Assembly: GCA_035711465.1 (NCBI GenBank)
Contig: DASTCC010000354.1
Span: 1-42,106 of the forward strand
Direction of reading: 5' to 3'
Origin: Vicinamibacterales bacterium
GTDB lineage: Bacteria > Acidobacteriota > Vicinamibacteria > Vicinamibacterales > SCN-69-37
Length of the DNA stretch: 42,106 nt
The position numbers and the translations under genes were made by a program. The notes beneath the pieces are model-generated. The model had not been told where the DNA came from. It was given only the letters and a program-made list of their open reading frames with translations, and did no database searches. Positions 225-25,449 of the stretch are shown piece by piece (positions within the stretch are counted from its first letter, which is position 1; every line of letters starts with the position of its first letter).

Positions 225-1340
225 ATGAAGCCCATTCACGTGCTCGTCGTCGACGACGCCCTCGTGACGCGCCGGATGACCTGCGACGCGCTCGGTGCCG
301 ATCCAGCCATTGTCGTCACCGAGGCCACTCACGGAAACGTCGCGCTGCAGAGGATCGCCGACAGCACGCCGGACGTCGTGATGTTCGACGTCGAGATGGC
401 GGACGCCGACGCACTCGAGATGCTGCGGCAGCTCCGCCGCGCAAGTCCGAAGCTGCCGGTGATCGTGTCCGCCTCGCCGACCGAGCACGGCGCTGCCACA
501 ACCATCGACGCGTTGCTGCTGGGCGCATCTGACTTCGCGATCCGACCTGCCAACCCCGGCCGCGTCCCTCTCGTGCAACAGCAGCTCCGCGAGGATCTGA
601 GTCCGAAGATCAAAGCGCTCGTGCCGTCCGCGCCGGCCGGCACCCCGGCCGGTCCGACGCTCGTGCACGCCACGACGCCGCACGTCGCACCGATGCCGGT
701 CACGCCGATGCCGCCGGCTCGAGCCGTCAAAACCGCTCCGCCCGCCGACGCGATCGCTGTTGGTGCCTCGACAGGCGGGCCCAACGCGCTGGCGGATCTG
801 ATTCCTGCACTGCCCGCGGACTTGCCGGCGCCGGTGCTGATCGTGCAACACCTGCCGGCCGTCTTCACGCGGCTTCTCGCCGAGCGGCTCGCCGCGCGAT
901 CGCAGATGCCGGTCATCGAGGCCACCGCCGATCTCGACGTGCGTGCCGGCCGTGTCTATCTCGCGCCCGGCGGCTTTCACATGACTCTGCGGCGTGAGGG
1001 TGAGCGCATCGTCATCGGTCTGAATCAGGAACGGGCCGAGCACTCGCGCCGGCCGGCGGTGGACGTGCTGTTCAGGAGCGTCAGCCGCGTCTACGGCGCC
1101 GGCGCGCTGGGCGTCGTTCTCACGGGTGGCGGGCAGGATGGCCTGCATGGCGCCGATCACATCGTCAGGCAGGGCGGACGGGTGATCGCACAGGACCAGT
1201 CGACGAGCGTCGTCGACATCCTGCCCGGCCTGGTCGATCGCGCCGGGCTTGCCGATCGCGTGTTGCCGCTTCAGCTCATCGCCGACGAGATCGTGCGGCG
1301 CACGATCGGCGCGACAGTTCGCCGCGCGGTGGGGGACTGA
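225..1340 (+). CDS. cheB: Protein-glutamate methylesterase CheB (receiver domain plus methylesterase domain)
   Basis: ORF track 120..1340. Start moved to ATG 225 (MKPIHVLVVDD), where receiver similarity begins. The receiver has a DD pair and the acceptor Asp in VVMFDVEM. The C-terminal CheB core has GASTGGP (Ser), VQHLP (His) and RPAVDVLF (Asp). Confidence 0.9.
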   Translation: MKPIHVLVVDDALVTRRMTCDALGADPAIVVTEATHGNVALQRIADSTPDVVMFDVEMADADALEMLRQLRRASPKLPVIVSASPTEHGAATTIDALLLGASDFAIRPANPGRVPLVQQQLREDLSPKIKALVPSAPAGTPAGPTLVHATTPHVAPMPVTPMPPARAVKTAPPADAIAVGASTGGPNALADLIPALPADLPAPVLIVQHLPAVFTRLLAERLAARSQMPVIEATADLDVRAGRVYLAPGGFHMTLRREGERIVIGLNQERAEHSRRPAVDVLFRSVSRVYGAGALGVVLTGGGQDGLHGADHIVRQGGRVIAQDQSTSVVDILPGLVDRAGLADRVLPLQLIADEIVRRTIGATVRRAVGD

Positions 1341-1408: not shown

Positions 1409-2470
1409 CTAGAACCGCTGAGCCGACGCCGCCAGGAGGCGGCGAATCGTGGCCTCGACTTCGCGCGCGCCGAGGGACGTCTGCGCGAGCGTCGCGGGCT
1501 TGGCGCCCTCGAGCGAGGGCTGGCGGCTCATCAGCCACGCGGCCGCCAGACCGCGATCGTCGCGGAAGAGCTCCAGCGCGAGACCGCAGATGTACGCCGC
1601 GCGCAGCAGTCGATCGGATTCCTCGCTCGACAACCGGCCTTCCTGCTTGCGGCGCAGCACGCCGCCGCGAGGGATGCTGACCATCTCGAGGACGCGGTCC
1701 TCTGGCAGGCCGGAGTTGATGACCAGACGCTCCAGCGTCTCGTACGGCAGCCCTTCCTCGAGCGACTGATTCAGGGCCTGAAACGACGCCGGCCGCAAAC
1801 CGACGAGCGCTGCGTAGGCCAGCCGCGTGGTCTCGGGATGCCCGAGCATCGATCGGAAATGGGCGATGTCGCCGGCGGCGCCGGCGTCCGATTCGCCGCG
1901 ATTCCTCGTCAGTCGCGACGCCAGTGCCGCGGTGCCGCGAGTGGCCGCATCGTCATAGAGCCGCCGCAGCGCCTTGCGGATCGCCAGCGCCGAGGAAGTG
2001 ACGACGATGATCGACGATCCCGTCAGCTGACCGAGCTCGTCGACGACGTTGCCGGCGGTGGGATCGTCCATCGCGACGGTCAGCGTCGGACCGAACTGGG
2101 CGATCGGCAGGACCAGGTGCTCGGTCGCGAACTCCTGCGGCACCGATCGCGACAGCGCGCGATCGACGACGACGTTGTCGAGATCGAGGTAGGGGATGCC
2201 GAGCTGCGTGCCGAGCGCGCGGCGCATCACCTCGTCGGTGACGAATCCGAGCTTCAGCAGGGCCTGGCCGAGCGGCAGCTTGCTGGTCTTCTGGGCGGTG
2301 AGCGCCTGATCGAGTTGCTCGGTCGTGATCGCTTCGCTCGCGACGAGGAGTTCGCCGAGCCGCTTGCGGCCCTGCGGTCCCGGCGGCCTCGATATGGTCT
2401 TCCGCGAATCGCCCGAGGACATTCGCTGAGTATCATGCGCGGTCCTCCGGGCAACGTCAACAACGCGCAA
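1409..2470 (-). CDS. Fusion protein: T2SSE_N/MshEN-type domain plus Xre-like HTH and DUF2384 (MbcA/ParS-type antitoxin toxin-binding) domain
   Basis: The N-terminal half matches the GspE/MshE N-domain (RLGELLVASEAITTEQLDQALTAQ-KTSKL-PLGQALLKLGFVTDEVMRRALGTQ, then LGIPYLDLD...LPIAQFGPTLTVAMDDP...). The C-terminal ~150 aa matches RES-type antitoxins (RRKQEGRLSSEESDRLLRAAYICGLALELFRDDRGLAAAWLMSRQPSLEGAKPATLAQTSLGAREVEATIRRL). An alternative start is ATG 2422 (MSSGDSRK). Confidence 0.75.
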   Translation of the reverse strand: MRVVDVARRTAHDTQRMSSGDSRKTISRPPGPQGRKRLGELLVASEAITTEQLDQALTAQKTSKLPLGQALLKLGFVTDEVMRRALGTQLGIPYLDLDNVVVDRALSRSVPQEFATEHLVLPIAQFGPTLTVAMDDPTAGNVVDELGQLTGSSIIVVTSSALAIRKALRRLYDDAATRGTAALASRLTRNRGESDAGAAGDIAHFRSMLGHPETTRLAYAALVGLRPASFQALNQSLEEGLPYETLERLVINSGLPEDRVLEMVSIPRGGVLRRKQEGRLSSEESDRLLRAAYICGLALELFRDDRGLAAAWLMSRQPSLEGAKPATLAQTSLGAREVEATIRRLLAASAQRF

Positions 2471-2604
2471 AGAGTCATCGAGAGGTCGTTCGAGTTCGTT
2501 CGTTGCAACATGACGCCTTACTGCCGCTAAAGGCGCGCGTTTTCACGCCGATTTTCAGGGGGACCCGGCAAGCGGCCGGCGGAGCGTGTGCCCGCGAGAC
2601 GACG

Positions 2605-3915
2605 ATGCCCGAAGAGTTGTTGAAGGAATTCCTGATCGAGTGCCACGAGAGCCTCGACAGGCTCGATCAGGACTTCGTCGCCCTCGAACGGAACGCGCAC
2701 GATCGCGAACGACTGAGCTCCGCGTTCCGAACCATCCACACCATCAAAGGCACCTGCGGCTTCCTCGCCCTGAGCAAGCTCGAGTCGGTGAGTCACGCCG
2801 GCGAGAGTCTGCTCTCGCACCTGCGCGACGGCCGCCTGACGCTCGACGCGGAGATGACGACCGCGCTGCTGGCGATGGTCGACGCGATTCGACGGATCCT
2901 CGCTGCGGTCGAGGCCACTGGCGAAGAGGGGGCCGAGAATCCCTCACGCCTCGTCGCCGAGCTCGAGCGGTTGAACGCAGGCCGCCGGCGTCCAGCCGGC
3001 GCGCCGGCACCGGCAGCGGCTGAGCTCACCATCGAAGCGGTCGAGGACCCGCGCTCCGGCGAGGATCGGCGCAGCCACGACGAGCGCCGCGCGGGCCTCC
3101 CGGATTCGTCGCTGCGCATCGACGTCGGCGTTCTCGACGAGCTGATGAATCTGGTCGGGGAGCTCGCGCTCGTCCGCGATCGGATGCTCGAGCTCACGGC
3201 GACCCGGCCCGGCGGCGACTTCGCCAGCGCCGCGGTCCGTCTCGACCGGGTCACGTCCGGCCTGCAGGAAAGCGTCATGAAGACGCGGATGCAGCCGATC
3301 GGGCACGTCTGGGGCAAGGTCCCGCGCATGGCCCGCGACCTCGCGGCGCAATGCGGCAAGTTGGTACGGGTCGAGATGGACGGGGAGCACGTCGACCTCG
3401 ACAGGACGATCGTCGACGCGATCAAAGATCCCCTGACCCACGCCGTGCGCAATTCGGTCGGCCACGGGATCGAGACGCCCTCCGAGCGACGCGCCCTGGG
3501 TAAGTCGGCCGAAGGGGTCATTCGTCTCCGCGCGGTGCGCGAACCTGGCTGCATCCGGATCGAGATCGCGGACGACGGGGCCGGCGTCGATCTCGCGCGT
3601 GTGCGGGCGAGGGCCGTCGAGCGCGGCGTGCTTTCGGCGAGTCAGGCCGCCGGGTTGAGCGATCGAGACGCGGCGCGGCTCGTGTTCCTTCCTGGCTTCT
3701 CGACGGTCAAGAAGGTGTCACACCTGTCGGGCCGCGGCGTCGGCATGGATGTCGTCAGGACGAACGTCGCGAAGATCGGCGGCAAGGTCGACATCGAGAG
3801 CGCGCGCGGCGCCGGCACCGTGCTGCGCATCACCATCCCGATCCTCGCGGTGAACGCTCAGCGGGAATCCCAGATCGCCGCCGGGCCGAAGAGACCGTTG
3901 ACGAATCCGATCTGA
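2605..3915 (+). CDS. cheA: CheA-like histidine kinase with Hpt(P1), dimerisation(P3) and HATPase(P4) domains only; no P2 or P5
   Basis: ORF track 2503..3915. Start moved to ATG 2605 (MPEELLKEFLIE). Hpt His lies in FRTIHTIKGTCGF, P3 is LRIDVGVLDELMNLVGELALVRDRM, and P4 has the N box HAVRNSVGHGIE and the G boxes DDGAGVD and GRGVGMDVV. The protein ends about 20 aa after ...GTVLRITIPILAV, where P5 normally starts. Confidence 0.85.
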   Translation: MPEELLKEFLIECHESLDRLDQDFVALERNAHDRERLSSAFRTIHTIKGTCGFLALSKLESVSHAGESLLSHLRDGRLTLDAEMTTALLAMVDAIRRILAAVEATGEEGAENPSRLVAELERLNAGRRRPAGAPAPAAAELTIEAVEDPRSGEDRRSHDERRAGLPDSSLRIDVGVLDELMNLVGELALVRDRMLELTATRPGGDFASAAVRLDRVTSGLQESVMKTRMQPIGHVWGKVPRMARDLAAQCGKLVRVEMDGEHVDLDRTIVDAIKDPLTHAVRNSVGHGIETPSERRALGKSAEGVIRLRAVREPGCIRIEIADDGAGVDLARVRARAVERGVLSASQAAGLSDRDAARLVFLPGFSTVKKVSHLSGRGVGMDVVRTNVAKIGGKVDIESARGAGTVLRITIPILAVNAQRESQIAAGPKRPLTNPI

Positions 3916-4574
3916 TAGGCGAGGACGAGGCCGAACAGCACGCTCGCGACGCCGGCGCCGGCGTGGAGCGCGCGCGAGAGCACCGGCACGCGGCCCGTCG
4001 TCATCGCGAACGGCACCGCAATCAACGCCGTGATCAGCATCATGCCAAGGATCGTGCCGAGGCCGAAGACACCGAGATAGACGAGTGCCCAGACCGGGTC
4101 GCCGATCGCCGACATCACCAGCAGCGCGACCGCGGCCGAGCCGGCGAGCCCGTGCACGACGCCGACGAGGAGCGGACGCACGAGCATGTACAGCGTGCCG
4201 CCGTCGAAGCGGCGGTCGAGCCAGGCCACGGCGTCGTCGGCCGCATGCGAGTGCGTGCCGCGCTCGTGGCGATGCTGCCGACGCAGTCCCGCGATCGTGC
4301 CGATGCCAAGCAGCACGAGCATCACCGCGACGGCGAACTCCATCGCCAGCCCAAGCCGAGCCGGCATCACCCAGCCGAAGAGGACGATGGCGCCGCCGAC
4401 GACGAACACGGTGAGCGTGTGGCCCAGTCCCCACGCCGCGCCGACGAGGCCGGCCTGGCGAATCGATCGGTGACGCGAGACGATCGTCGACACCGCGACG
4501 ACGTGATCGGGATCGGTGGCGTGCCGCATGCCGAGCAGGAAGCCGAGGGCCACGATGCCCATCGTTCCGGTCAT
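3858..4574 (-). CDS. NicO/RcnA/NiCoT-like nickel/cobalt transporter (6 predicted TM segments, His-rich loop)
   Basis: This is the C-terminal 238 codons of ORF 3858..5162, starting at ATG 4574 (MTGTMGIVALGF). It has the signature LGMRHATDPDHVVAV, a His-rich loop RRQHRHERGTHSH and a second-half HGLAGSAA. The upstream part of the track ORF looks non-coding. Confidence 0.75.
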   Translation of the reverse strand: MTGTMGIVALGFLLGMRHATDPDHVVAVSTIVSRHRSIRQAGLVGAAWGLGHTLTVFVVGGAIVLFGWVMPARLGLAMEFAVAVMLVLLGIGTIAGLRRQHRHERGTHSHAADDAVAWLDRRFDGGTLYMLVRPLLVGVVHGLAGSAAVALLVMSAIGDPVWALVYLGVFGLGTILGMMLITALIAVPFAMTTGRVPVLSRALHAGAGVASVLFGLVLAYQIGFVNGLFGPAAIWDSR

Positions 4575-4655
4575 GCCCGGGACACCAGCGATCGAGAACG
4601 GCGCGTGAACATCGGGGTGATTTGCAAAGGGGCCAAAGACCTGCGATCTTACCCC

Positions 4656-5012
4656 ATGGTCGCCCGGCGCCGTCGCTTCGTCGCCATCGCCGCGATCGTC
4701 GTCAGTCTCGCCGCTGCGTCGCTGGACGCGCAGCGATTCGTCGCTCCGCCCTCGGCATCCCAGCCCTTCAATCCCGTGCCGCGCGACCTGCCGCCGCTCC
4801 ACATCAGCGGCGAAACCAAGATGCGGCTGCGCAACGCGTCGATCGATTCGAGGCTGCCCGCCAATCGCTGGCTGCAGACGCCGGAGCCGACGGGCGCGCG
4901 AACGCCCGAGCGCATCCGCCGCGCCGTCGTCACGCTCACGGCCCTCGCCGCCAGCGCGATGGTGCTGCTGCTGGTCGCCGCCTGGCTCTTCCTCCGCCGC
5001 CGCCAGCCCTGA
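4656..5012 (+). CDS. Hypothetical exported protein with a C-terminal membrane anchor (118 aa)
   Basis: In-frame ATG 4656 inside track ORF 3963..5012. It has an N-terminal signal-like segment MVARRRRFVAIAAIVVSLAAASLDAQ and a C-terminal hydrophobic helix followed by RRRQP. No family was recognised. Confidence 0.45.
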   Translation: MVARRRRFVAIAAIVVSLAAASLDAQRFVAPPSASQPFNPVPRDLPPLHISGETKMRLRNASIDSRLPANRWLQTPEPTGARTPERIRRAVVTLTALAASAMVLLLVAAWLFLRRRQP

Positions 5013-5717: not shown

Positions 5718-6152
5718 ATGACGAGCCCCCGCCGCCGAGGCGCCATCGCGATGGTTGCGATGGCTCTCGCGGCTCTCACCTACGGTTGTGACGACAACAC
5801 GCTTCCCACCGCGCCCACGGATCTGACCGAGGGCGTCGTGATCTACGAGCATGCCAACTTCATGGGCCGCTCGGCCCACCTGACGAGCGACGTCAGGAAC
5901 CTGAGAGACTTCGACGGCCCGTGCGCGCACGGTGACGGCGACGATGTCGCGGAAGTCTGGGACGACTGCGCATCGTCGATCCGGGTCGCGCCGGGGTGGC
6001 GCGCCATCCTCTATGTCGATGACGACTTCGACGGCCAGCAGCTGACGGTGACGACCGACGTCGAGAACCTCGTGTTTTCGCCGGGCACGTGCGACAAGGG
6101 CGGCTTCAACGACTGCACGACGTCGATTCGCGTAACTCGGCCGACTCAGTGA
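5718..6152 (+). CDS. Lipoprotein with a beta/gamma-crystallin-like (peptidase-inhibitor I36-like) domain
   Basis: The lipobox is ALTYGC. Two Greek-key-like repeats each end in D-C-x-S-S-IRV (VIYEHANFMGRS...DCASSIRV and AILYVDDDFDGQQL...NDCTTSIRV). Confidence 0.65.
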   Translation: MTSPRRRGAIAMVAMALAALTYGCDDNTLPTAPTDLTEGVVIYEHANFMGRSAHLTSDVRNLRDFDGPCAHGDGDDVAEVWDDCASSIRVAPGWRAILYVDDDFDGQQLTVTTDVENLVFSPGTCDKGGFNDCTTSIRVTRPTQ

Positions 6153-6870: not shown

Positions 6871-7311
6871 TCAAGAGCTGCTGCGCGACATCCAGCGGAA
6901 CATCGCCAGCATGCTGCCGGCGGTGAGCAGGACGGCGCCGGCGAGCCAGGGAAGCGTGGACGTGGCCGCGACGGTCGCGCTCTGCATCGTCGGCCAGAAC
7001 TCCGCCCGCCAGCCCCAATACGCCAGCAGCACGAGCCCGACGATGCCGCAGACCAGCTGGCCGATGGTGATGATGCGCGACGCGACCTCTTCGGCGCGGA
7101 GGCGGCGAGCATGACGCGCGCGCTGCCAGATCATCTGTGCGTTCGCGCGCGGCGGAGGACCGACCCGCGCCGTGCCCAGCACCGCGGCGATCGTCCGGAC
7201 CTCACCGCACGTGCGGCAGCGGTCCGCGTGCGACTGCAGGACTGGCGTCCACCGTCCCGTGACCGACGCCTGTCGAACCGCGTCTTCGTGTGCGCAGCCG
7301 CGGCGAATCAT
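6871..7311 (-). CDS. Membrane-anchored anti-sigma factor (zf-HC2 type)
   Basis: The Zn-finger pattern is C-x27-H-x3-C-x2-C (MIRRGCAHEDA...SHADRCRTC), followed by TM helices. Its ATG overlaps the sigma-factor stop in an ATGA (7308-7311), suggesting translational coupling. Confidence 0.7.
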   Translation of the reverse strand: MIRRGCAHEDAVRQASVTGRWTPVLQSHADRCRTCGEVRTIAAVLGTARVGPPPRANAQMIWQRARHARRLRAEEVASRIITIGQLVCGIVGLVLLAYWGWRAEFWPTMQSATVAATSTLPWLAGAVLLTAGSMLAMFRWMSRSSS

Positions 7312-7919
7312 GACGTGCGCTCCGACGGCAGGCCGTTCTCGGCGCGCCATGCCTCGAGCGCCGACGCGAAGCGGCGGCGCGCCCGGAAGAGCAGAGGCTT
7401 CAGGCTCGCGCGCATCAGGCCGGTGATGCCGGCGATCTCCTTGTGCGACAGCCCTTCGACGTAGGCGAGCAGCAGCAGCTCGCGATCGCGCGGCGTTACG
7501 CGGCCGAGCACGGTCCAGACATCGTCGGCCCGATCCATTGCGGCGCCAGGATCGTCTGCCGACACGCGGTGGTCGTCGGCTGGATCGTGCGCGACGAAAC
7601 GACGCTCGCGGCGGAAGTGATCGCGAGCGAGGTTCGTGGCGATCTTGAACAGATAGTTCTTCCGATGCTCGTCGTCGGCCGGCACGTTCGCCGCGGTGAG
7701 CAGGCGCAGGTAGGCATCCTGGAGCAGGTCGTCGGCGACGCCGGCGTCACGGGTCAGACGGCGCAGGTAGCGGCTGACGGGACCGGAGGTCCTCGCGTAG
7801 AACTCGAGGAACGCCGGCTCGTTCATCGGCAGCCGGCCGACCCGTTCCGCGACGAGTGCTTCCACGACACTGGGAGCAGCAGCGAGCGGGTTCACGCTTC
7901 CTGACCGTTCTGCTGCCAC
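7308..7919 (-). CDS. ECF-type RNA polymerase sigma-70 family factor
   Basis: Region 2 is DDLLQDAYLRLL...YLFKIATNLARDHFRRERR. Region 4 is RDRELLLLAYVEGLSHKEIAGITGLMRASLKPLLFRARRRF. An alternative start is ATG 7826. Confidence 0.9.
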   Translation of the reverse strand: MAAERSGSVNPLAAAPSVVEALVAERVGRLPMNEPAFLEFYARTSGPVSRYLRRLTRDAGVADDLLQDAYLRLLTAANVPADDEHRKNYLFKIATNLARDHFRRERRFVAHDPADDHRVSADDPGAAMDRADDVWTVLGRVTPRDRELLLLAYVEGLSHKEIAGITGLMRASLKPLLFRARRRFASALEAWRAENGLPSERTS

Positions 7920-10985: not shown

Positions 10986-12149
10986 TTATCGCGTAAACAC
11001 CGGCTGTCCCGCCGCCGCCCGGCGCTCCTCAATCAGATCCGACAGCTCGAGCCGCAGGTTGCTCGGATTGGTCGCGTAGCTCAGGCCGGCATCGAGGTCG
11101 AGCACGTCGGCGCGGATCAGCCGTTCGATCTCGCCGTCGAAGTGCTGCATGCCGTCCATCGCGCCGTCGCGCATGGCGTCGAGCAGCGTCTTGCCGTCCT
11201 GTTCGCCCTTCTCCACGTACTCGCGCGTGCGCAGCGTCGCTTTGAGCACCTCGAGCACCGCGATGCGGCCCTTGCCGTCCTTCCGGGGCAGCAGACGCTG
11301 CGAGACGATGTACTGAAACGCTTTCGAGAACCGCGTCCGGATCGCATGCTGGTCGCCGAGCGGGAACGCGCCGACGATGCGCTCGACCGTCTTCGACGCG
11401 TCGATGGTGTGCAGCGTCGACATCACCAGGTGGCCAGTCTCCGACGCCTCGACCGCGATCTCGATGGTCTCGCGGTCGCGCATCTCGCCGACGAGGATGA
11501 CCTTCGGCGCCTGTCGCAGCGCCGCGCGCAGCGCCAGGCTGAACGTCGGCGTGTCGGTGTGCAGCTCGCGCTGGTGAATCGTCGCCTTCTTGTGCTGGTG
11601 CAGGAACTCGATCGGGTCTTCGATGGTGACGATGTGAATGGCGCGCTCGTTGTTCATCTGGTCGATCAGCGCCGCCAGCGTCGACGACTTGCCCGATCCG
11701 GTCGGGCCGGTCACGAGGACGATGCCGTTGCGCATGTTGCAGATGTCGGAGAGCGTCGCCGGCAGACCGAGGTCGGTGAGCGTCGGGATCGTCGAGGGAA
11801 TCACCCGCATCACGATGGCGTAGGTCGATCGCTGGCGGAACACGTTGACGCGAAACCGTGCAACGCCGGGCAGCGCATAAGAGAGGTCCGCCGACCCGTC
11901 GCGGGTGATCTGCTGGTGGGCCGACTTGTTCGGGCCAATCAGATCCTGCGCGATCTGCGTCGTCTGTTCCGGCGTCAGCACCTCGAGGCCGGGGAACGGT
12001 AGCGGCACGAGCACGCCTTTGGCTTCGATTTGAGGCGGCCGGCCGGGCGAGAAGATCAGATCGCTCACGTGCTGGCGTCCCTCGAGCATCGAGTCGATGA
12101 GCTGCTCGGTCGGGACGCGGACGGTCGGCGTTGCCGATTCTGTAATCAT
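10986..12149 (-). CDS. pilT: PilT/PilU-family type IV pilus retraction ATPase
   Basis: Walker A is GPTGSGKSST, the Asp box is IVTIEDPIEF, Walker B is ILVGEMRD and the His box is GHLVMSTLHT. The length of 387 aa fits. No pilB or pilC is adjacent. Confidence 0.9.
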   Translation of the reverse strand: MITESATPTVRVPTEQLIDSMLEGRQHVSDLIFSPGRPPQIEAKGVLVPLPFPGLEVLTPEQTTQIAQDLIGPNKSAHQQITRDGSADLSYALPGVARFRVNVFRQRSTYAIVMRVIPSTIPTLTDLGLPATLSDICNMRNGIVLVTGPTGSGKSSTLAALIDQMNNERAIHIVTIEDPIEFLHQHKKATIHQRELHTDTPTFSLALRAALRQAPKVILVGEMRDRETIEIAVEASETGHLVMSTLHTIDASKTVERIVGAFPLGDQHAIRTRFSKAFQYIVSQRLLPRKDGKGRIAVLEVLKATLRTREYVEKGEQDGKTLLDAMRDGAMDGMQHFDGEIERLIRADVLDLDAGLSYATNPSNLRLELSDLIEERRAAAGQPVFTR

Positions 12150-14309: not shown

Positions 14310-17300
14310 TCAGTACGTCAAGTCCGTTTCATGCCTGCTGAGGACGACGCCGAAGACGCCCTGCAGCAGCTCGCCGTGATCGCCGAGCACGTCGAACAAG
14401 TCGTCGTGCGTCAGTCGCAGCGCCCGGCCCGCCGCGGTCACCCGGATGCAGCGTCCGCCGGTCGCGTTCGTGAGCGCTTCGGCCGCGCCCACGGTGGCGC
14501 CCGGCCCGGCGACGACCGGCGGGCGGCCCGGGCGTTCAATCGTGATCTGACCCGAGAGCAGATGATAGATCGCCGGCTCGCGTCTGTCGCCGAGAAGCAC
14601 GTCGCCCGTCGTTATCGGCACCTCCCGGGCGACGGCCGTCAGTTCCTGGAGCTGCGCCACCGACGCATGCGTGAAAATCGGAATCTGCCGCAGGTGCAGC
14701 GTCTTCTCGACGGCGTCGAGGGGGTCCCCGTCGCGCGGCGCCGGCGGCTCGTTCACTTCGTGCCAGTCGAGCTCGACGTTCCGGTTGGCCAGCAGCATCT
14801 GGAACAGGCCCTGGGCGGTCGCGGTGTTGTCGGCCAGCATCGTCAGGAACATCGGCCCGCCGAGCGATAGCGTGACGACCGCGGTCTCGGCATCGAGGCC
14901 AAAGCGCAGCGGGCGCTCCTCGAGCAGCTCGGCGATGTTGAGGACCGCTGGCGAGGCGACGGTCGCCGCGTGCGCGGCATCGCCGGTCAGCCGGCCGTAG
15001 CCGTCGATCAGGAACAGCACCTCGTCGGGCACGACGCCGGCGCGCGAGAGATGCTGGCCGCGCGGGTGGCGCACCTGACGGCCGGCGCCGGCGATGCGGA
15101 AGAGCTCGTCCACCGAGACGCGCCGGAACACGGAGACGTCCTGGAGCCGGCTCGCCAGATCGACGATCGTCAGCGGCATCTCGGCGTCCGCGGCGGCCGG
15201 CTGACGCGAGTGCCGCGCCCAGGCCGCCGCCTCGCGGACGATCGGATCGGTGGTGCGGTGACTGAGGAGGTAATCGAAGTCGTCGTCGAGGCCGGGCACG
15301 CGGGCGACGACGGCGAAGTGGACGGCCGCGGCGGCGACGACCGGGTCGTGCTCGTGGATGAGCTGCGCGACGGTGTCGGTCACGTCGCGGGGACGCGACT
15401 TCAGCAGGCTGTTGGCGTGCGTCACCTTGTCGGCCATCAGCGTGTCTTCGAGGATCGGCATCACCCGCTTGCGGACGGTCCCCTGCAGCACGTTGTCGAG
15501 ATACTCGAGCCCGCGCGCGCGGGTGTTGACGTCGGCGCTCTCGACGGCGACGCGGGCGGCGAGCACGTCGGTCGGCGAGTGGAGCAGGCCGAGCAGACGG
15601 TAGATGCGATCGAGCGCCCGCTCCAGCTTCTCGTCGAGGGCGCGCAGGAAGAGCGATTGCCGCGCCGTGTGCCCGGCGGTGACGAGGTTGAAGCGCAGCG
15701 TCAGGTAGGTGTAGTAGCCGCCGGTTTCCCTGATCAGCCGCGCTTCGATCGCCTCGGCCGGCAGCGTCAGCTCCGGATTCGAGCGCCGCATCGTCTCGAT
15801 GGCGGTGATGATCTTGAAGCGGAGGAAGCCGTCGGGATCGCCGAGCGCGCCGACGAGCACGTCCATGGCGCGCTGCGACGGCATCCGCGCCAGCGTCGCC
15901 GGGATGTGACGCCGGACCCAGATGGGCTCGTGCGGATCGTGCAGGAAGTGATCGAGCGCCTCGACGATCGACGTGCCGTAGCCGATCAGCGCCTCGCGGG
16001 CCTCGCGCTTGAGCTCGCGGTGACCGAGCAGCGAGACCAGCGCCGGCACGAACAGCGCGTCGCTGACGCCGATGGCGCGGGCGCTGGCGATCGCTTCGCG
16101 CGCGACGTCGACGTCCGGGTCGTGGATGAGCGGGATCAGCATCGAGCCGAACGCCGGATTCTGGACCCGCGCCAGCGCCGCGGCGACGTCGCGCCGTGCC
16201 GCGGCGTTGGCGTGCCGGGTGTCGGCGGCGAAGCGTGACAGCGTGCGCTCGGCGGCGGCGACGTCGGCGTCGCGTCCGGAATCGGCGAGCTCGGCGGCCG
16301 CCGACACCGCGACGCGCGGCTCGGGGTCGGCGAGGAACCGCCGCATCCGGCTCGCGCCTTCGTCCTGGCCGGCGGCCGCGACCAGGGCGCGGACCGCGGC
16401 GGCGCGCACGTCGGCATCGGGATCGCCGAGCAGCTTCTGCGCGGCCGGCAGCCACGGCGCCGTCGACGTCGCGTCGGCGGCGAGCACATTGAGGACGCGG
16501 GCGCGCACGCGCGGCGAGCCGTGATGCAGCAGCAGCGAAGAGATCCGATTGCGCTTGCCGAGCGTCTCGAGCATGTCGATCGCGTAGAGCACCGTGCCCT
16601 CGTCGGGCCGCGACAGGTGATCGACGAGGACGTCGAGCGTGGCGGCGTCGCCGACCTCGAAGCGGACGTCGAACGGCGTCAGGTCGTGCGCCTCGAGGCT
16701 GCGCCGGAACGAGCGCAGGTACTCGCGCCGCGCGACCAGCGCAAACCAGATCCAGCCGACCATGACGATCAGGCTCGCGTAGCTGATTTGCTTCCAATCG
16801 AGCCCCAGGCCCCACGGTTTGATCAGCGCCAGCAGCACCACCGCGCCCACCGCTTTGGCAAAGCGATCGACGGTGACGTCGATGAACGGCTTGGCGCGGT
16901 ACTTGATGTCGCCGGGCAGCGGCAGGAACAGCACCTCGCGCGTCGTCTTGTCGATGGTGTAGCGGAGCGACGAGTCGAGCACGCGCGCGGCGCCTGGCGC
17001 CCAGAGGGCGCCGGAGAGCAGGATCACCGCCGCGGTGCCGCCGAGCGTGACCGGGAGGAGCAACAGCGCGAACACCAGCCCGAACGATCGGTGGATGCGG
17101 CTGGTCAGCCCGATCTGCACGACGAAGCCGAACAGCGACAGGTAGACGGTGATCTGGGCGAGGAACTTGGCGATTTCCTCGGCCGATTGGCGGTTGGCGT
17201 CGGCGGCCATGTTGAGCTGCTGCTCGACGAAGACCGCGCCGATCGCGGCAAAGGCGATGACGAGCGCAATCACCTGCAGGTGCCGCGACTGGCGCAGCAG

Positions 17301-17954
17301 CTGGACCGCTTCGGTGGCGCCGACGCCGTGCTCTTCGATGGCGAGCGCAAACGCGCTCGACGGCGGCTGCCGCCGGATCACCAGGATCGCGACGGCGACG
17401 CACATCAGCAGGATCGTCGCGCTTACCGGCAGCAGGTTGCCGATGCCGACGCGCTCGACCAGGAACGTCGTGATCGCCGCGCCGGTGGCGCCGCCGAGGC
17501 TCGCGCCGGCGCCGATGAAGCCGAAGATGCGGCGCGCTTGACGCGGATCGTAGATGTCGTTGGCGAGCGTCCAGAACTGGCTGATCAGCAGCAGCCCGAG
17601 CATCAGCCCGAAGACGTAGAACGCCACCGACACCCAGGTGTCGTCGCTCCCGAAGAGCGGCCAGAATGCCAGCAGGATCGCGGCGAGCGTCGTCTGCGTG
17701 ATCGGGATCACCCAGCGGCGCGGCAGCCGCGTGATCGCCTGAATGTAGACGTGTATCAGCAGGCCGATGCAGACCCCGGCTGCCAGCTGCACGTACGGCA
17801 GGTTATCCGAGCCGAGATGGTCGATGAACTTCGATCGCGTGATCGGCTTGAGGATGTTGTACGACGTCATCGCCAGGAAGGAGTAGGCGAACATCAGGGC
17901 GGCAGTCACGCCCTCGCCCGTCCGAAGGGCGACGATCCGATCCAGACGACTCAT
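14310..17954 (-). CDS. 1214-aa fusion: TLC/Npt-like (ATP:ADP antiporter family) 12-TM permease, HEAT repeats and two cyclic-nucleotide-binding domains
   Basis: The N-terminus MFAYSFLAMTSYNILKPITRSKFIDHLGSDNLPYVQLA and its many TM segments resemble Npt1/Npt2 transporters. The middle carries repeated DPDADVRAAAVRAL / DPEPRVAVSAAAEL / DPDVDVAREAIAS HEAT-like units. The C-terminus has two cNMP-like domains (VSVFRRVSVDELFRIA... and IPIFTHASVAQLQELT...). Confidence 0.8.
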   Translation of the reverse strand: MSRLDRIVALRTGEGVTAALMFAYSFLAMTSYNILKPITRSKFIDHLGSDNLPYVQLAAGVCIGLLIHVYIQAITRLPRRWVIPITQTTLAAILLAFWPLFGSDDTWVSVAFYVFGLMLGLLLISQFWTLANDIYDPRQARRIFGFIGAGASLGGATGAAITTFLVERVGIGNLLPVSATILLMCVAVAILVIRRQPPSSAFALAIEEHGVGATEAVQLLRQSRHLQVIALVIAFAAIGAVFVEQQLNMAADANRQSAEEIAKFLAQITVYLSLFGFVVQIGLTSRIHRSFGLVFALLLLPVTLGGTAAVILLSGALWAPGAARVLDSSLRYTIDKTTREVLFLPLPGDIKYRAKPFIDVTVDRFAKAVGAVVLLALIKPWGLGLDWKQISYASLIVMVGWIWFALVARREYLRSFRRSLEAHDLTPFDVRFEVGDAATLDVLVDHLSRPDEGTVLYAIDMLETLGKRNRISSLLLHHGSPRVRARVLNVLAADATSTAPWLPAAQKLLGDPDADVRAAAVRALVAAAGQDEGASRMRRFLADPEPRVAVSAAAELADSGRDADVAAAERTLSRFAADTRHANAAARRDVAAALARVQNPAFGSMLIPLIHDPDVDVAREAIASARAIGVSDALFVPALVSLLGHRELKREAREALIGYGTSIVEALDHFLHDPHEPIWVRRHIPATLARMPSQRAMDVLVGALGDPDGFLRFKIITAIETMRRSNPELTLPAEAIEARLIRETGGYYTYLTLRFNLVTAGHTARQSLFLRALDEKLERALDRIYRLLGLLHSPTDVLAARVAVESADVNTRARGLEYLDNVLQGTVRKRVMPILEDTLMADKVTHANSLLKSRPRDVTDTVAQLIHEHDPVVAAAAVHFAVVARVPGLDDDFDYLLSHRTTDPIVREAAAWARHSRQPAAADAEMPLTIVDLASRLQDVSVFRRVSVDELFRIAGAGRQVRHPRGQHLSRAGVVPDEVLFLIDGYGRLTGDAAHAATVASPAVLNIAELLEERPLRFGLDAETAVVTLSLGGPMFLTMLADNTATAQGLFQMLLANRNVELDWHEVNEPPAPRDGDPLDAVEKTLHLRQIPIFTHASVAQLQELTAVAREVPITTGDVLLGDRREPAIYHLLSGQITIERPGRPPVVAGPGATVGAAEALTNATGGRCIRVTAAGRALRLTHDDLFDVLGDHGELLQGVFGVVLSRHETDLTY

Positions 17955-23115: not shown

Positions 23116-25449
23116 ATGTCCCGGCCCTCCGCGCGGTTCCTGCTTTTTGCGATGACGATCGCGGCCGCATGCGGCGCGCCGCCGCCGACGTCGCCGATCA
23201 TTCTGTCGATCGTCGGCACGAACGACGTCCACGGCGCGATGCTCGATGGCGACGGCCAGGGTGGCCTGGCGCTGTTCGGCGGATATCTCAAAAACCTGCG
23301 GGCAGCGCGCGCGCGCGACCGGGGCGGCGTGCTGCTCGTCGACGCCGGTGACATGTGGCAGGGAACGCTCGAGTCGAACCTCTCGGAAGGCGCCGTGATG
23401 GTCGAGGCCTACGGCGCGCTCGGCTATCAGGCGGTCACGATCGGCAACCACGAGTTCGACTACGGGCCGGCCGGCGAGCACGCGACGCCGACGGAGCCCG
23501 GCGACGACCCGCGCGGCGCGCTCCGCCAGCGCGCGGCGGCGGCGCGCTTCCCGTTTCTCGCCGCCAACATCGTCGAGATCGAGTCGGCGCGGCCGGTCGA
23601 CTGGCAGAACGTCAGACCGTCGACGTCGATCGACGTCGCCGGCGTTCGCGTCGGGCTCATCGGCGTGACGACGGTGGAGACGCTCGAAGACACGATTGCC
23701 GCGAACCTCCGCGGTCTGACCATCCGGGCGCTGGCGCCGACGGTCGAGAGTGAAGCCAGGGGGCTTCGCGCCGCCGGCGCGACGGTCGTGGTCGTGCTCG
23801 CCCACGCCGGCGGCCGTTGCCAGCGATACACCGGCGCCGAGGCAGCCGACACCTGCGGCGCCAACGACGAGATCGTGCAGGTCGCACGCGCGCTGCCGTC
23901 CGGCCTCGTCGACGTCATCGTCGCGGGGCACACGCACGCGCCGATGGCGAACGAGATCAACGGTGTCGCCGTGATCGAGTCGTTTGCCCGCGGGCGCGCG
24001 TTCGGTCGTGTCGACCTGGCCATTGATCCCGCGACGCGCCGCCCGACGACGCGAACGATTCATCCGCCGGAGAACATCTGTGCGTATGCGCGGCCCGACG
24101 GGCAATGCGTGCCAGCCACCGGCGCCGCGGCCGAGATTCGTGAGCGTTACGAAGGCGCCGTCGTGGAGCGCGACGCACGCGTCGCGGCCATCGTCGCCGG
24201 CGCCGCGGAGCGCGTGGCCGAGATCAAAGCGCGCCCGCTGGAGGTGATCGCCGATACCGCCTTCCCGACGCGCGGCGAGATCGAATCGCCGCTCGGCAAT
24301 CTCGTCGCCGACGCCCTCCTCGCCGGCGCAGATGGCGCGCAGATCGCGATCAACAACACCGATGGCGGCCTACGCGCGGAGCTGCCGGCCGGTCCGGTGA
24401 CGTTCGGCCGGATCTACGAGGTCTTCCCCTTCGACAATCTGCTCGTGACGTTTCCGATCACGGGCGCGCAGTTGAAGCAGGTGCTGGCGGGGCAGATGCA
24501 GGGCGGCGCGCAGATCCTCGGGCTCGCCGGTTTTCGCGCGGTCGCCCGCTGCAGCCGCGGCCGCGCCGACGTCGCGCTGACGCGAGCGTCAGGAGCGCCG
24601 ATCGGCGATGCCGAGACCCTGACGCTGGCGACGACCGACTATCTCGCGACGACGCCGCTCTTCGCGACGGTGCCGGCCGCGCGCACGCCGCGCGTCGATC
24701 GCCGGCTGGCGCGCGATCTGATCGTCGACTGGCTGCGCGCGCGCGGCGGCCGTCTCGACGCGGCCTCATTCATCAACGAGCACGCGCCGCGCTATCCCGC
24801 CCGCAGCACGTTGCCGATGAAGTGCGGCGCGTCATCCGCGCCGATCGAGGCGATCGGCCTGTCAGGGGGTGGCGAGGCCGCCGTTGCGTTGCTGCTGGCG
24901 GTACTTCCTGACCCGGAGCGCGGCGTCGAGATGCTGCGGCTCGGCGCGGCCGTTGAACTCGGCGTCGGGATCGAGGATGAAGCGGCGCGAGACGATGTCG
25001 CCGTTGACGGCCGCATGGGCCCGGACGTCGACGACGTCGGTGGCGATGAGCTGGCCGGCGATGCGGCCGAACACGGTGATGTCGCGGGCGATGATGTCGC
25101 CGTCGACGCCGGCCGACGCCTGGACGATCACGGCGCCCTCTTCGCACCAGACCGGCCCCTCGACGTGGCCCTCGAGCGTGAGGTCTTCCCCGGCGTGGAG
25201 TTCACCCTTGATCGAAAGCGACTTGCCTATCGTCGTCATTACGCTTCGATTGTGTCAGAAAACCGTGCCCGGAGATCGCCGCGTGGGCTCATCCACGTCA
25301 CCTTCGCCGGCTCCGCATCGCGCTCGAGCGGCGGGTGCACGCGGACTAATCAGGGTGCGCGGCGGGGAGCGTGCCGAGCAGGCTTCGCAGCGACAGGCCA
25401 TCCCAGAAGCCGCAGGGCACTTCCCGTAGCCGCTCGTCGGAGCGGATGA
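23116..25449 (+). CDS. Lipoprotein 5'-nucleotidase / bifunctional metallophosphatase (UshA-like); homology ends near 24800 and the rest is a stop-free extension
   Basis: In-frame ATG 23116 lies in track ORF 21802..25449. The lipobox is TIAAAC. Motifs are GTNDVHG, DAGDMWQG, GNHEFDYG and AGHTHA, and the C-terminal substrate domain runs ...SPLGNLVADA...FPFDN...TTDYLA.... The first in-frame stop is at 25447-25449. TACAAT lies at 23102-23107. Confidence 0.75.
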   Translation: MSRPSARFLLFAMTIAAACGAPPPTSPIILSIVGTNDVHGAMLDGDGQGGLALFGGYLKNLRAARARDRGGVLLVDAGDMWQGTLESNLSEGAVMVEAYGALGYQAVTIGNHEFDYGPAGEHATPTEPGDDPRGALRQRAAAARFPFLAANIVEIESARPVDWQNVRPSTSIDVAGVRVGLIGVTTVETLEDTIAANLRGLTIRALAPTVESEARGLRAAGATVVVVLAHAGGRCQRYTGAEAADTCGANDEIVQVARALPSGLVDVIVAGHTHAPMANEINGVAVIESFARGRAFGRVDLAIDPATRRPTTRTIHPPENICAYARPDGQCVPATGAAAEIRERYEGAVVERDARVAAIVAGAAERVAEIKARPLEVIADTAFPTRGEIESPLGNLVADALLAGADGAQIAINNTDGGLRAELPAGPVTFGRIYEVFPFDNLLVTFPITGAQLKQVLAGQMQGGAQILGLAGFRAVARCSRGRADVALTRASGAPIGDAETLTLATTDYLATTPLFATVPAARTPRVDRRLARDLIVDWLRARGGRLDAASFINEHAPRYPARSTLPMKCGASSAPIEAIGLSGGGEAAVALLLAVLPDPERGVEMLRLGAAVELGVGIEDEAARDDVAVDGRMGPDVDDVGGDELAGDAAEHGDVAGDDVAVDAGRRLDDHGALFAPDRPLDVALEREVFPGVEFTLDRKRLAYRRHYASIVSENRARRSPRGLIHVTFAGSASRSSGGCTRTNQGARRGACRAGFAATGHPRSRRALPVAARRSG
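24862..25239 (-). CDS. Bactofilin (polymer-forming cytoskeletal protein, DUF583)
   Basis: The 125-aa sequence shows the typical bactofilin beta-helix periodicity: SLSIKGELHAGEDLTLEGHVEGPV...VDGDIIARDITVFGRIAGQLIATDVVDVRAHAAVNGDIVSRRFIL. Confidence 0.85.
   Translation of the reverse strand: MTTIGKSLSIKGELHAGEDLTLEGHVEGPVWCEEGAVIVQASAGVDGDIIARDITVFGRIAGQLIATDVVDVRAHAAVNGDIVSRRFILDPDAEFNGRAEPQHLDAALRVRKYRQQQRNGGLATP

Follow-up and report, generated by a model that had tools for sequence, protein, structure and literature searches.

What does a bacterium do with the antitoxin of a toxin-antitoxin (TA) system when it is fused to a second-messenger receptor and stands among chemotaxis genes with no toxin beside it? 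The question is raised by a 42,106 bp stretch of DNA with 68.8% G+C (contig DASTCC010000354.1 of GenBank assembly GCA_035711465.1, from a member of the Vicinamibacterales in the phylum Acidobacteriota), hereafter the window, which holds on its minus strand an open reading frame (ORF) of 353 amino acids at 1409-2470. A preliminary description, made from the sequence alone, had read the product of this ORF as an MshEN-type receptor for c-di-GMP (cyclic dimeric guanosine monophosphate) joined to a complete RES-type antitoxin. Our analysis indicates that the fusion is best classed within the MshEN receptor family, to which it adds a new domain architecture whose output is an exapted antitoxin, and not as a new kind of system. 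Regarding its function, the reading that we prefer, tentatively and with somewhat less than even confidence, is that of a soluble c-di-GMP effector tied to motility, in which a domesticated antitoxin module would provide the output by docking onto a protein.

A search of 5.8 billion protein clusters, one of which (P0001) is identical to the window protein, recovered eight further clusters, 46-88% identical, in which the three domains are combined in the same way. When one genome was taken for each GTDB species, the full-length fusion was found in 7 of 185,579 species, all of them metagenome-assembled genomes (MAGs) of Acidobacteriota; where a finer name is given these are labelled Vicinamibacterales, and some records carry other labels. 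A metagenome scan contributed about eight additional loci. The family is confined to Acidobacteriota and comprises about 20 distinct loci. The mean pairwise identity over 15 fusion members, computed region by region, is highest in the 53-residue signature of the N-terminal MshEN subdomain, MshEN_N (0.72), followed by the second MshEN subdomain, MshEN_C (0.66), the DUF2384 subdomain (0.62) and residues 260-289, which carry a GRLxxxESDRLL motif and lead from the recognition helix to DUF2384 (0.57). The first helices of the helix-turn-helix (HTH) are less conserved (0.41); the recognition helix, at 0.28, is the least conserved of the structured parts and comes near the level of the linker (0.17), with the C-terminal tail lowest of all (0.08). 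The rarity of the family and the fact that all its members come from metagenomes or MAGs could be taken to favor an artefact or a decaying remnant, be it through chimeric assembly, through a wrongly called gene fusion or through decay of a TA locus into a pseudogene. This explanation is effectively refuted by the comparative data and retains hardly any probability: about 20 independent contigs encode the full-length protein at 43-88% identity, the frames being unbroken and the promoter conserved, and both halves appear, from the pattern of conservation, to be under strong purifying selection. The joining of the two domains is thus a property of a conserved gene family and not an accident of assembly.

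The comparison with homologues also revised the start of the gene. In place of the TTG at 2470, with which the ORF of the preliminary description opened, we assign the ATG at 2422, the methionine at which the homologues likewise begin, so that the coding sequence spans 1409-2422 on the minus strand (337 amino acids; stop codon at 1409-1411). The conserved -35 and -10 boxes fall downstream of the TTG, and the supposed N-terminal extension was rejected because the promoter sits inside it. This promoter (2432-2460, minus strand) is sigma-70-like and consists of a -35 box TTGACG (2455-2460), a spacer of 17 nucleotides and a -10 box CATGAT (2432-2437) that ends 9 nucleotides before the ATG; a consensus scan found this one site against 0.0 expected. 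The same arrangement, TTGACG-N17/18-CAT(C/G)AT placed 9-11 nucleotides before the start codon, is present in six other loci (L001, L002, L005, L007, L015 and L019), the proteins of which are 43-62% identical to the window protein. The closeness of a dedicated promoter to the ATG implies that the gene is probably transcribed on its own, as a leaderless or near-leaderless mRNA.

The preliminary description had recognized, at 2204-2362, two 24-residue motifs separated by a 5-residue spacer, and the NCBIfam model of the MshE-related c-di-GMP motif, NF053729, matches exactly these residues (37-89 of the 353-residue ORF, or 21-73 of the 337-residue protein) with 60.3 bits against a cut-off of 38. 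This segment (minus strand), which was also compared position by position with the published motif, constitutes the predicted c-di-GMP-binding signature of MshEN_N. It is followed by a T2SSE_N1-type MshEN_C subdomain (1943-2203, minus strand; residues 74-160), delimited by the Pfam model MshEN (PF05157; 1.6e-19, 70.1 bits against a gathering score of 23.1), by matches to PilB and PilF in the PDB and by structural superposition. Searches of PDB sequences with the N-terminal half recovered the N-terminal domains of PilB, PilF and MshE. We modeled the protein with AlphaFold2 from a 50-sequence alignment, obtaining a mean predicted local distance difference test score (pLDDT) of 91.4 and a predicted template modeling score (pTM) of 0.59; across residues 21-160, which form the four-helix bundle of MshEN_N and the alpha/beta MshEN_C, pLDDT exceeds 90. 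The superposition on MshEN complexes that the preliminary description had proposed agrees with this assignment: Foldseek places the model on c-di-GMP-bound MshE (5HTL) with a template modeling (TM) score of 0.78 and a root-mean-square deviation of 2.9 Å over 138 columns, and also returns the c-di-GMP-bound GSPII-B domains of PilF.

Several departures from the motif had been pointed out, and these fare differently when compared with the relaxed pattern that Wang et al. 2016 used for searching, [RKPN]hGxxhhxx[GAS]hhxxxxhxxxhxx[QNKRYWST]. Pro1, Phe11 and Met17 of motif II are allowed by it and cease to be deviations; only the Glu at position 10 of motif I, which lies outside the pattern, stands as one. 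It replaces the glycine of the alpha1-alpha2 turn, G18 in Vibrio cholerae MshE. Among the nine members first retrieved (P0001-P0009), five satisfy the relaxed tandem motif in full. The positions that contact the ligand are kept across the family, namely R/K-L-G, L17, L21 and Q24 in motif I (R, L, G, L17, L21 and Q24 in the window protein) and L-G, a hydrophobic residue at 17, L21 and Q24 in motif II (with M17 in the window protein); those contacting the bases and those contacting the ribose and phosphate are all intact in the window protein, and the 24+5+24 spacing is exact. The N-terminal half is a full MshEN domain of the PilB/MshE type, which should bind one molecule of c-di-GMP.

The turn Glu, lying outside the relaxed motif, invites the alternative that the MshEN half no longer senses c-di-GMP and serves only as a protein-interaction domain, in the manner of the GspE N1-GspL and PilB-PilZ pairs, making the fusion a constitutive scaffold. 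There are precedents for both parts of this proposal: XpsE and other MshEN homologues lost binding through changes in the motifs (PMC5013675), and MshEN/T2SSE_N domains bind partner proteins, with 7LKM and 4PHT among the Foldseek matches of our model. We consider it unlikely nevertheless, given that every ligand-contacting position is intact in both motifs, that the single deviation concerns a turn residue which is Gly in most orthologues, that the NF053729 score is far above its cut-off, and that XpsE deviates at eight key positions rather than one (PMC5013675).

The C-terminal half had been described as an Xre-like HTH followed by DUF2384, and both domains were recovered above their gathering scores by Pfam: Xre-like-HTH (PF20432) at 1.2e-8 with 35.5 bits against 25.8, and Xre_MbcA_ParS_C (PF09722) at 5.7e-8 with 33.1 bits against 24.5, the latter match ending at position 48 of the 51 in the profile. 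The general antitoxin-component model TIGR02293 scores 74.7 (cut-off 57); NF049845, which represents a narrower RES/Xre antitoxin subfamily, gives 73.4, below its cut-off of 90. The HTH subdomain occupies 1595-1774 (residues 217-276) and the DUF2384 subdomain 1436-1579 (residues 282-329), both on the minus strand, as are all parts of the gene; between MshEN_C and the antitoxin-derived half lies a poorly conserved helical linker (1829-1942; residues 161-198), in the model a long helix covers residues 145-173, and pLDDT falls to its internal minimum (about 69) at residues 161-180. PDB sequence searches with the antitoxin-derived half matched two antitoxins, 8GUG_B and 6GW6_B, and 6GW6_B and 9R35 in turn support the limits of the HTH; Foldseek superposes the model on 8GUG_B with TM 0.82 and on the full-length Xre antitoxins 6GW6_B and 9R35 with TM 0.67-0.71 over about 149 columns. 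When the C-terminal 153 residues alone were used as a query, we recovered stand-alone proteins of 139-170 amino acids with both antitoxin domains, 41-49% identical to the query. The two closest that we examined, at 48-49% identity, both have a RES toxin gene directly downstream, and the C-terminal half therefore derives from a genuine type II antitoxin of an Xre-RES system.

The toxin itself is gone from the vicinity of the fusion gene. The statement that no toxin gene lies on either side holds for the window, where the neighbors are cheB and cheA: when two RES proteins of the closest TA loci served as tblastn queries, neither the window nor any of 20 homologous loci yielded a RES homologue (best E-value 0.3), and none of the larger window ORFs scanned with Pfam contains a RES domain. 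A RES toxin or its remnant beside the fusion gene was rejected on these searches, and no member of the family has an adjacent RES, ParT or MbcT gene of the kind expected if the locus were an ordinary TA remnant. The names under which members currently appear in databases, "putative toxin-antitoxin system antitoxin component" and "toxin-binding domain-containing protein" among them, are misleading in this respect, and counts of TA loci should leave the fusion genes out.

Two sequence elements of working antitoxins have been affected as well. In the 20 closest stand-alone antitoxins a recognition helix I-x-x-R-T-L-x-R-R-K and a tail E-H-G-V are invariant, and the fusion family conserves neither. 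For a wider comparison we used an exhaustive HMMER search of 1.84 billion representatives, which gave 2,126 hits at E <=1e-3, and scored the motifs in the best 150 of these, comprising 149 newly returned representatives (one of them a fusion, P0074) and, as the 150th, the family member P0004. A tail of the R(L/I)EHGV type was present in 133 of the 149 diverse representatives (89%) as against 0 of 15 fusion proteins, and the strict helix motif [RK]T[LIVMF]x[RK][RKW] in 106 of the 149 and in no fusion protein; P0074 and P0004 have neither. The window protein ends instead in a degenerate tail, LAASAQRF (1412-1435), and its recognition helix, IPRGGVLRRK (1646-1675; residues 250-259), has G-G in place of R-T. 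In a second subclade (L077, L017/L027, P0074 and L016) an R-T or R-A pair is kept in the helix. As judged by these motifs, the loss of the DNA-reading signature is clear for the subclade of the window and not for the family as a whole, and the loss of the tail is universal.

By alignment, the R-T pair and the tail would correspond to elements with characterized roles in Xre, MbcA and NatR. Repression by Pseudomonas putida Xre is abolished by the R67A substitution, R67 being, with T68, a recognition-helix residue in contact with the operator (bioRxiv 10.1101/2024.05.20.595033); the C terminus of MbcA blocks the toxin cleft, and deletion of its last ten residues abolishes neutralisation (PMC6436930); the C-terminal helix of NatR reaches into NatT's active-site groove (PMC11535050). 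The preliminary notion of a complete antitoxin unit consequently survives with respect to the full-length fold, and has to be given up with respect to the EHGV-type tail, which is missing family-wide, and to R-T, which has become G-G in the window protein. In terms of four testable hallmarks of a functional Xre-RES antitoxin, the window protein possesses the domains and lacks the toxin gene, the tail and the R-T helix. The positions conserved in the fusions alone (S299, R300, P302, S303 and A307) cluster in the former toxin-binding subdomain.

It might be argued, from the conservation of this subdomain (0.62) and its homology to working antitoxins, that the protein is an antitoxin still, acting in trans on an unlinked NAD+-degrading toxin of the RES type and placing the release of that toxin under c-di-GMP control. 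Type II antitoxins are almost always encoded beside their toxin, and here no RES gene occurs within up to 10 kb in about 20 loci; moreover, every member has lost the tail with which antitoxins block the active site of the toxin and, as mentioned above, the narrower model NF049845 stays below its cut-off. This alternative strikes us as very improbable, even though another toxin, HipH, is reported to be linked to c-di-GMP (PMC11452175) and a sensor-antitoxin fusion with a linked RES gene does exist. The latter, P0151 (L074, 18-860), has the order receiver (REC)-Xre-DUF2384 and is directly followed by a RES gene from about 869. Together with the fusions MerR-Xre (P0158) and BON-Xre (P0108) it couples a sensor to HTH-DUF2384, and in all three the EHGV tail is kept and the PF09722 match covers the profile up to the last of its 51 positions, which suggests that they are regulated but genuine antitoxins of signal-regulated Xre-RES systems. 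The contrast with P0151, which has retained both tail and RES gene, supports the view that the loss of tail and the loss of toxin go together in the MshEN fusion.

If the antitoxin module has been freed from its toxin, its HTH could still have been put to use. A c-di-GMP-responsive transcription factor, in which the Xre HTH binds its own promoter or those of flagellar and che genes and MshEN has replaced RES in controlling HTH dimerisation, is the most probable of the rival readings, though we regard it as rather unlikely. The model shows the HTH fold at high confidence, and the whole of it can be aligned with the DNA-bound Xre 9R35; most fusions keep the basic residues with which the recognition helix ends and the G-R that follows (R258 in 8 of 9, R263 in 9 of 9); one subclade retains R-T or R-A; and in the Xre-RES and NatRT systems DNA binding is set by the partner-dependent oligomeric state, a role in which a fused sensor could substitute for the partner. 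Upstream of the -35 box of the window gene there are, in addition, tandem decamers, GAGGTCGTTC/GAGTTCGTTC (2482-2501, plus strand), which contain CGAACG on the gene strand. CGAACG decamers also occur upstream of the gene in L005 (2956-2985) and L007 (about 880-925) and are not clear in L001 and L002; they are a possible candidate regulatory site, though a motif so short could be due to chance. Against such a role, the recognition helix is poorly conserved at 0.28 identity, R-T is missing in the window protein and in the members P0002-P0008 of its subclade, the promoter hexamers are the only conserved elements in the fusion upstream regions, with no conserved operator or palindrome among them, and P. 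putida Xre on its own is monomeric and represses poorly. Docking appears the more likely output of the fusion than DNA binding.

The nature of the process in which a docking protein would take part is suggested by its neighbors. In 16 of 17 informative loci (L017 was left out of the tally for having too little flank) flagellar or che genes lie convergently downstream of the fusion gene. The recurrent arrangement is that of motB-motA directly adjoining it tail-to-tail, as in L005, L007, L015, L016, L018, L019 (the same locus as L082/L083), L075, L076, L078, L079 and L080. In three more loci motB-motA is set off from the fusion gene by something else: in L001 by a histidine-kinase fragment, in L002 by genes for CheX, a receiver-domain (CheY-like) protein and an HDOD protein, and in L027 by a 163-residue ORF without a Pfam match. 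In L077, flgM-, fliA- and fleN-like ORFs, so named from resemblance by eye and not from a profile match, lie downstream instead. The adjoining MotA passes the flagellar stator equivalog TIGR03818 with 332.6 bits (cut-off 303.8), and motB-motA is followed by genes of the flagellin-glycosylation type (NeuB, Maf/MptE-like). The other side is variable: a gene for a 102-residue protein with skp/ompH, a gene for a 296-residue protein or, nearby in L002, an EAL gene. The L002 locus encodes an HDOD-HD protein (3976-4872, minus strand) between the fusion gene and motB and, two genes upstream of the former, an EAL-domain protein (243-950, plus strand), both of them further c-di-GMP-related domains in the neighborhood of the fusion. 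A protein of 102-104 residues without a Pfam family is encoded divergently upstream in L001 (9415-9723, minus strand), L005 (2098-2406, minus strand), L007 (429-743, minus strand) and the P0007 contigs; having no homologue in the window, it was dismissed as a universal partner.

The window itself departs from this pattern. Its cheB (225-1340, plus strand; CheB_methylest at 1.1e-56 plus Response_reg, NF001965 with 308 bits against 293), which encodes a receiver and a methylesterase, is convergent with the fusion gene and takes the downstream place held by motB in most homologous loci. Divergently upstream stands a gene for a short CheA of 436 amino acids (2605-3915, plus strand), with Hpt, dimerisation and HATPase domains by Pfam; a NicO-like gene lies on the same side. 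In this CheA no P5/CheW-like domain was detected and P2 is not recognisable, the NCBIfam CheA matches stopping at about 537 of 666-670 positions; Pfam and NCBIfam thus agree with the earlier placement of the gene between cheB and a P5-less cheA. There is no visible cheW, cheR or methyl-accepting chemotaxis protein gene in the window, the contig of which ends 120 nucleotides upstream of the cheB ORF. The survey of relatives did not extend the conservation anticipated for the cheB/cheA neighborhood: this adjacency is specific to the window and was discarded as a conserved feature, the recurrent neighbor being motB-motA or other flagellar and che genes. Similarly, the idea of an antitoxin-derived docking domain gains from the signs of exaptation in the loss of tail and toxin, and the choice of CheA or CheB as its partner is without comparative support.

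These lines of evidence can be assembled into the following scheme, all of it conditional. The MshEN half would bind c-di-GMP through its tandem 24-residue motifs. The antitoxin-derived half would serve as a domesticated output module, a reading suggested by the loss of the toxin gene, of the tail and, in the subclade of the window, of the R-T signature. The former toxin-binding subdomain could then dock onto a protein partner upon binding or release of c-di-GMP, and this partner, acting in flagellar motility or chemotaxis, would couple the level of c-di-GMP to swimming. A coupling to motility or chemotaxis seems the most likely one because the gene has a conserved promoter to itself and, in nearly all relatives, is arranged tail-to-tail with motB-motA or with other che and flagellar genes. 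A more specific version, in which, in Acidobacteriota, the former toxin-binding domain directly engages either the stator of the flagellum or an enzyme of chemotaxis and so defines a new class of c-di-GMP effector, is possible and, in our estimate, doubtful.

Several points weigh against this motility-docking scheme. The Glu at the alpha1-alpha2 turn, found only in the window protein and its closest relative, P0002, with Gly in most orthologues, falls outside even the relaxed published [GAS] rule. The fusion gene is convergent with the motility genes and hence not co-transcribed with them, its promoter is sigma-70-like and not flagellar, and the housekeeping genes skp/ompH are syntenic on its other side in several loci; since a single lineage is concerned, common descent could account for much of the synteny. 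With a pTM of 0.59, the model gives no confident picture of how the two halves are oriented to each other. Members of the second subclade, with R-T or R-A retained, may still bind DNA. The analysis establishes the domain composition and fold, the conservation pattern, the gene neighborhood and the absence of a toxin gene from the loci searched. We infer all three of c-di-GMP binding, which for this protein is a prediction, the link to motility, and docking onto a protein, the partner in which is hypothetical.

The relationships of the fusion to known systems can be stated with more assurance. Published MshEN fusions encompass ATPases of type II secretion systems and type IV pili, glycosyltransferases, REC, HD-GYP, CheA, CheX, cyclases and kinases, of which those with CheA and CheX provide a precedent for a chemotaxis link; the text and supplementary architecture table of the same survey do not mention Xre, HTH, DUF2384 or antitoxin (PMC5013675). 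We also found no description of this architecture, and no paper in which MshEN is combined with DUF2384, in the searchable literature, and the view that the architecture is undescribed stands on both counts. With V. cholerae MshE, PilB/PilF, NfrB, MshEN-CheX, MshEN-REC and CheA-MshEN_N the fusion shares the 24+5+24 signature and the modular use of MshEN as a sensor; it differs from them in having as its output a module derived from Xre/RES antitoxins instead of an ATPase, glycosyltransferase, REC or CheX, and, in the window protein, in the Glu at the turn glycine. With the antitoxins of the Xre-RES, MbcA-MbcT, ParS-ParT and NatR-NatT systems (6GW6, 9R35, 8GUG, 6FKG and 8QNL) it shares the HTH plus DUF2384 fold (TM 0.67-0.82) and the core motifs GRLxxxESDRLL, WL..Q..L.G..P and LGAREVE. 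In contrast to these antitoxins, it has no toxin gene and no EHGV-type tail, has lost R-T in the window protein, possesses a 190-residue N-terminal sensor, and stands in a flagellar context instead of a two-gene TA cassette.

A third comparison is functional. YcgR, MotI, FlgZ and MapZ are PilZ-type c-di-GMP brakes and adaptors. Like PilZ-type effectors in general (YcgR, MotI/DgrA, FlgZ, MapZ and PlzC), the fusion would be a small soluble c-di-GMP receptor, its stator or chemotaxis link being drawn in this case from gene neighborhood alone. The ligand-binding fold and the output domain are different, and the likeness to YcgR, MotI, FlgZ and MapZ is confined to function; no PilZ domain, the hallmarks of which are RxxxR and DxSxxG motifs, was matched in the fusion protein by Pfam or NCBIfam at E-values up to 1.

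The MshEN half also has relatives with other partners. Proteins P0010-P0013 are fusions of MshEN to OsmC, absent from the 2016 architecture table, in which the MshEN half is 50-60% identical to that of the window protein. An origin of our fusion by an in-place domain swap from such paralogues was rejected, as P0013 sits in an unrelated genomic context. The OsmC fusions belong to a far larger set of paralogous MshEN domains (P0010-P0013 and loci L020-L044 and L084-L154), 50-66% identical to that of the window protein and joined to other C-terminal halves, which is found in soil Acidobacteriota and in Methylomirabilota/Rokubacteria.

Farther from the fusion gene, the window encodes a few other proteins of interest. 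At 8.5 kb from it lies the gene for a T2SSE-family ATPase of 387 amino acids without an MshEN N-terminal domain (10989-12149, minus strand), possibly PilT/PilU-like to judge by its size. A 1,214-residue protein (14313-17954, minus strand) has an unusual architecture that combines a membrane domain resembling major facilitator superfamily (MFS)/TLC ATP-ADP transporters with HEAT repeats and a weak C-terminal cyclic-nucleotide-binding domain. A sigma factor of the extracytoplasmic function (ECF) type (7311-7919, minus strand) is followed by an overlapping ORF of 159 amino acids without a Pfam family (6874-7350, minus strand), possibly its anti-sigma factor; a beta/gamma-crystallin-like small protein (5718-6149) is encoded near the sigma factor gene, and a bactofilin at 24865-25254.

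Acidobacteriota are abundant in soil and have barely been characterised with respect to c-di-GMP signaling or the control of motility, and the family described here would supply a candidate c-di-GMP effector encoded beside their stator genes. If the link to motility is true, a receptor unrelated to PilZ would be doing in these bacteria the job that YcgR-type proteins perform in Proteobacteria. If the fusion indeed engages the stator or the chemotaxis apparatus, it would constitute a motility brake or clutch unrelated to PilZ, and a TA component would have been recruited to second-messenger signaling. The family offers a testable example of a part of a TA system reused for signaling, with its toxin-binding scaffold apparently still under selection.

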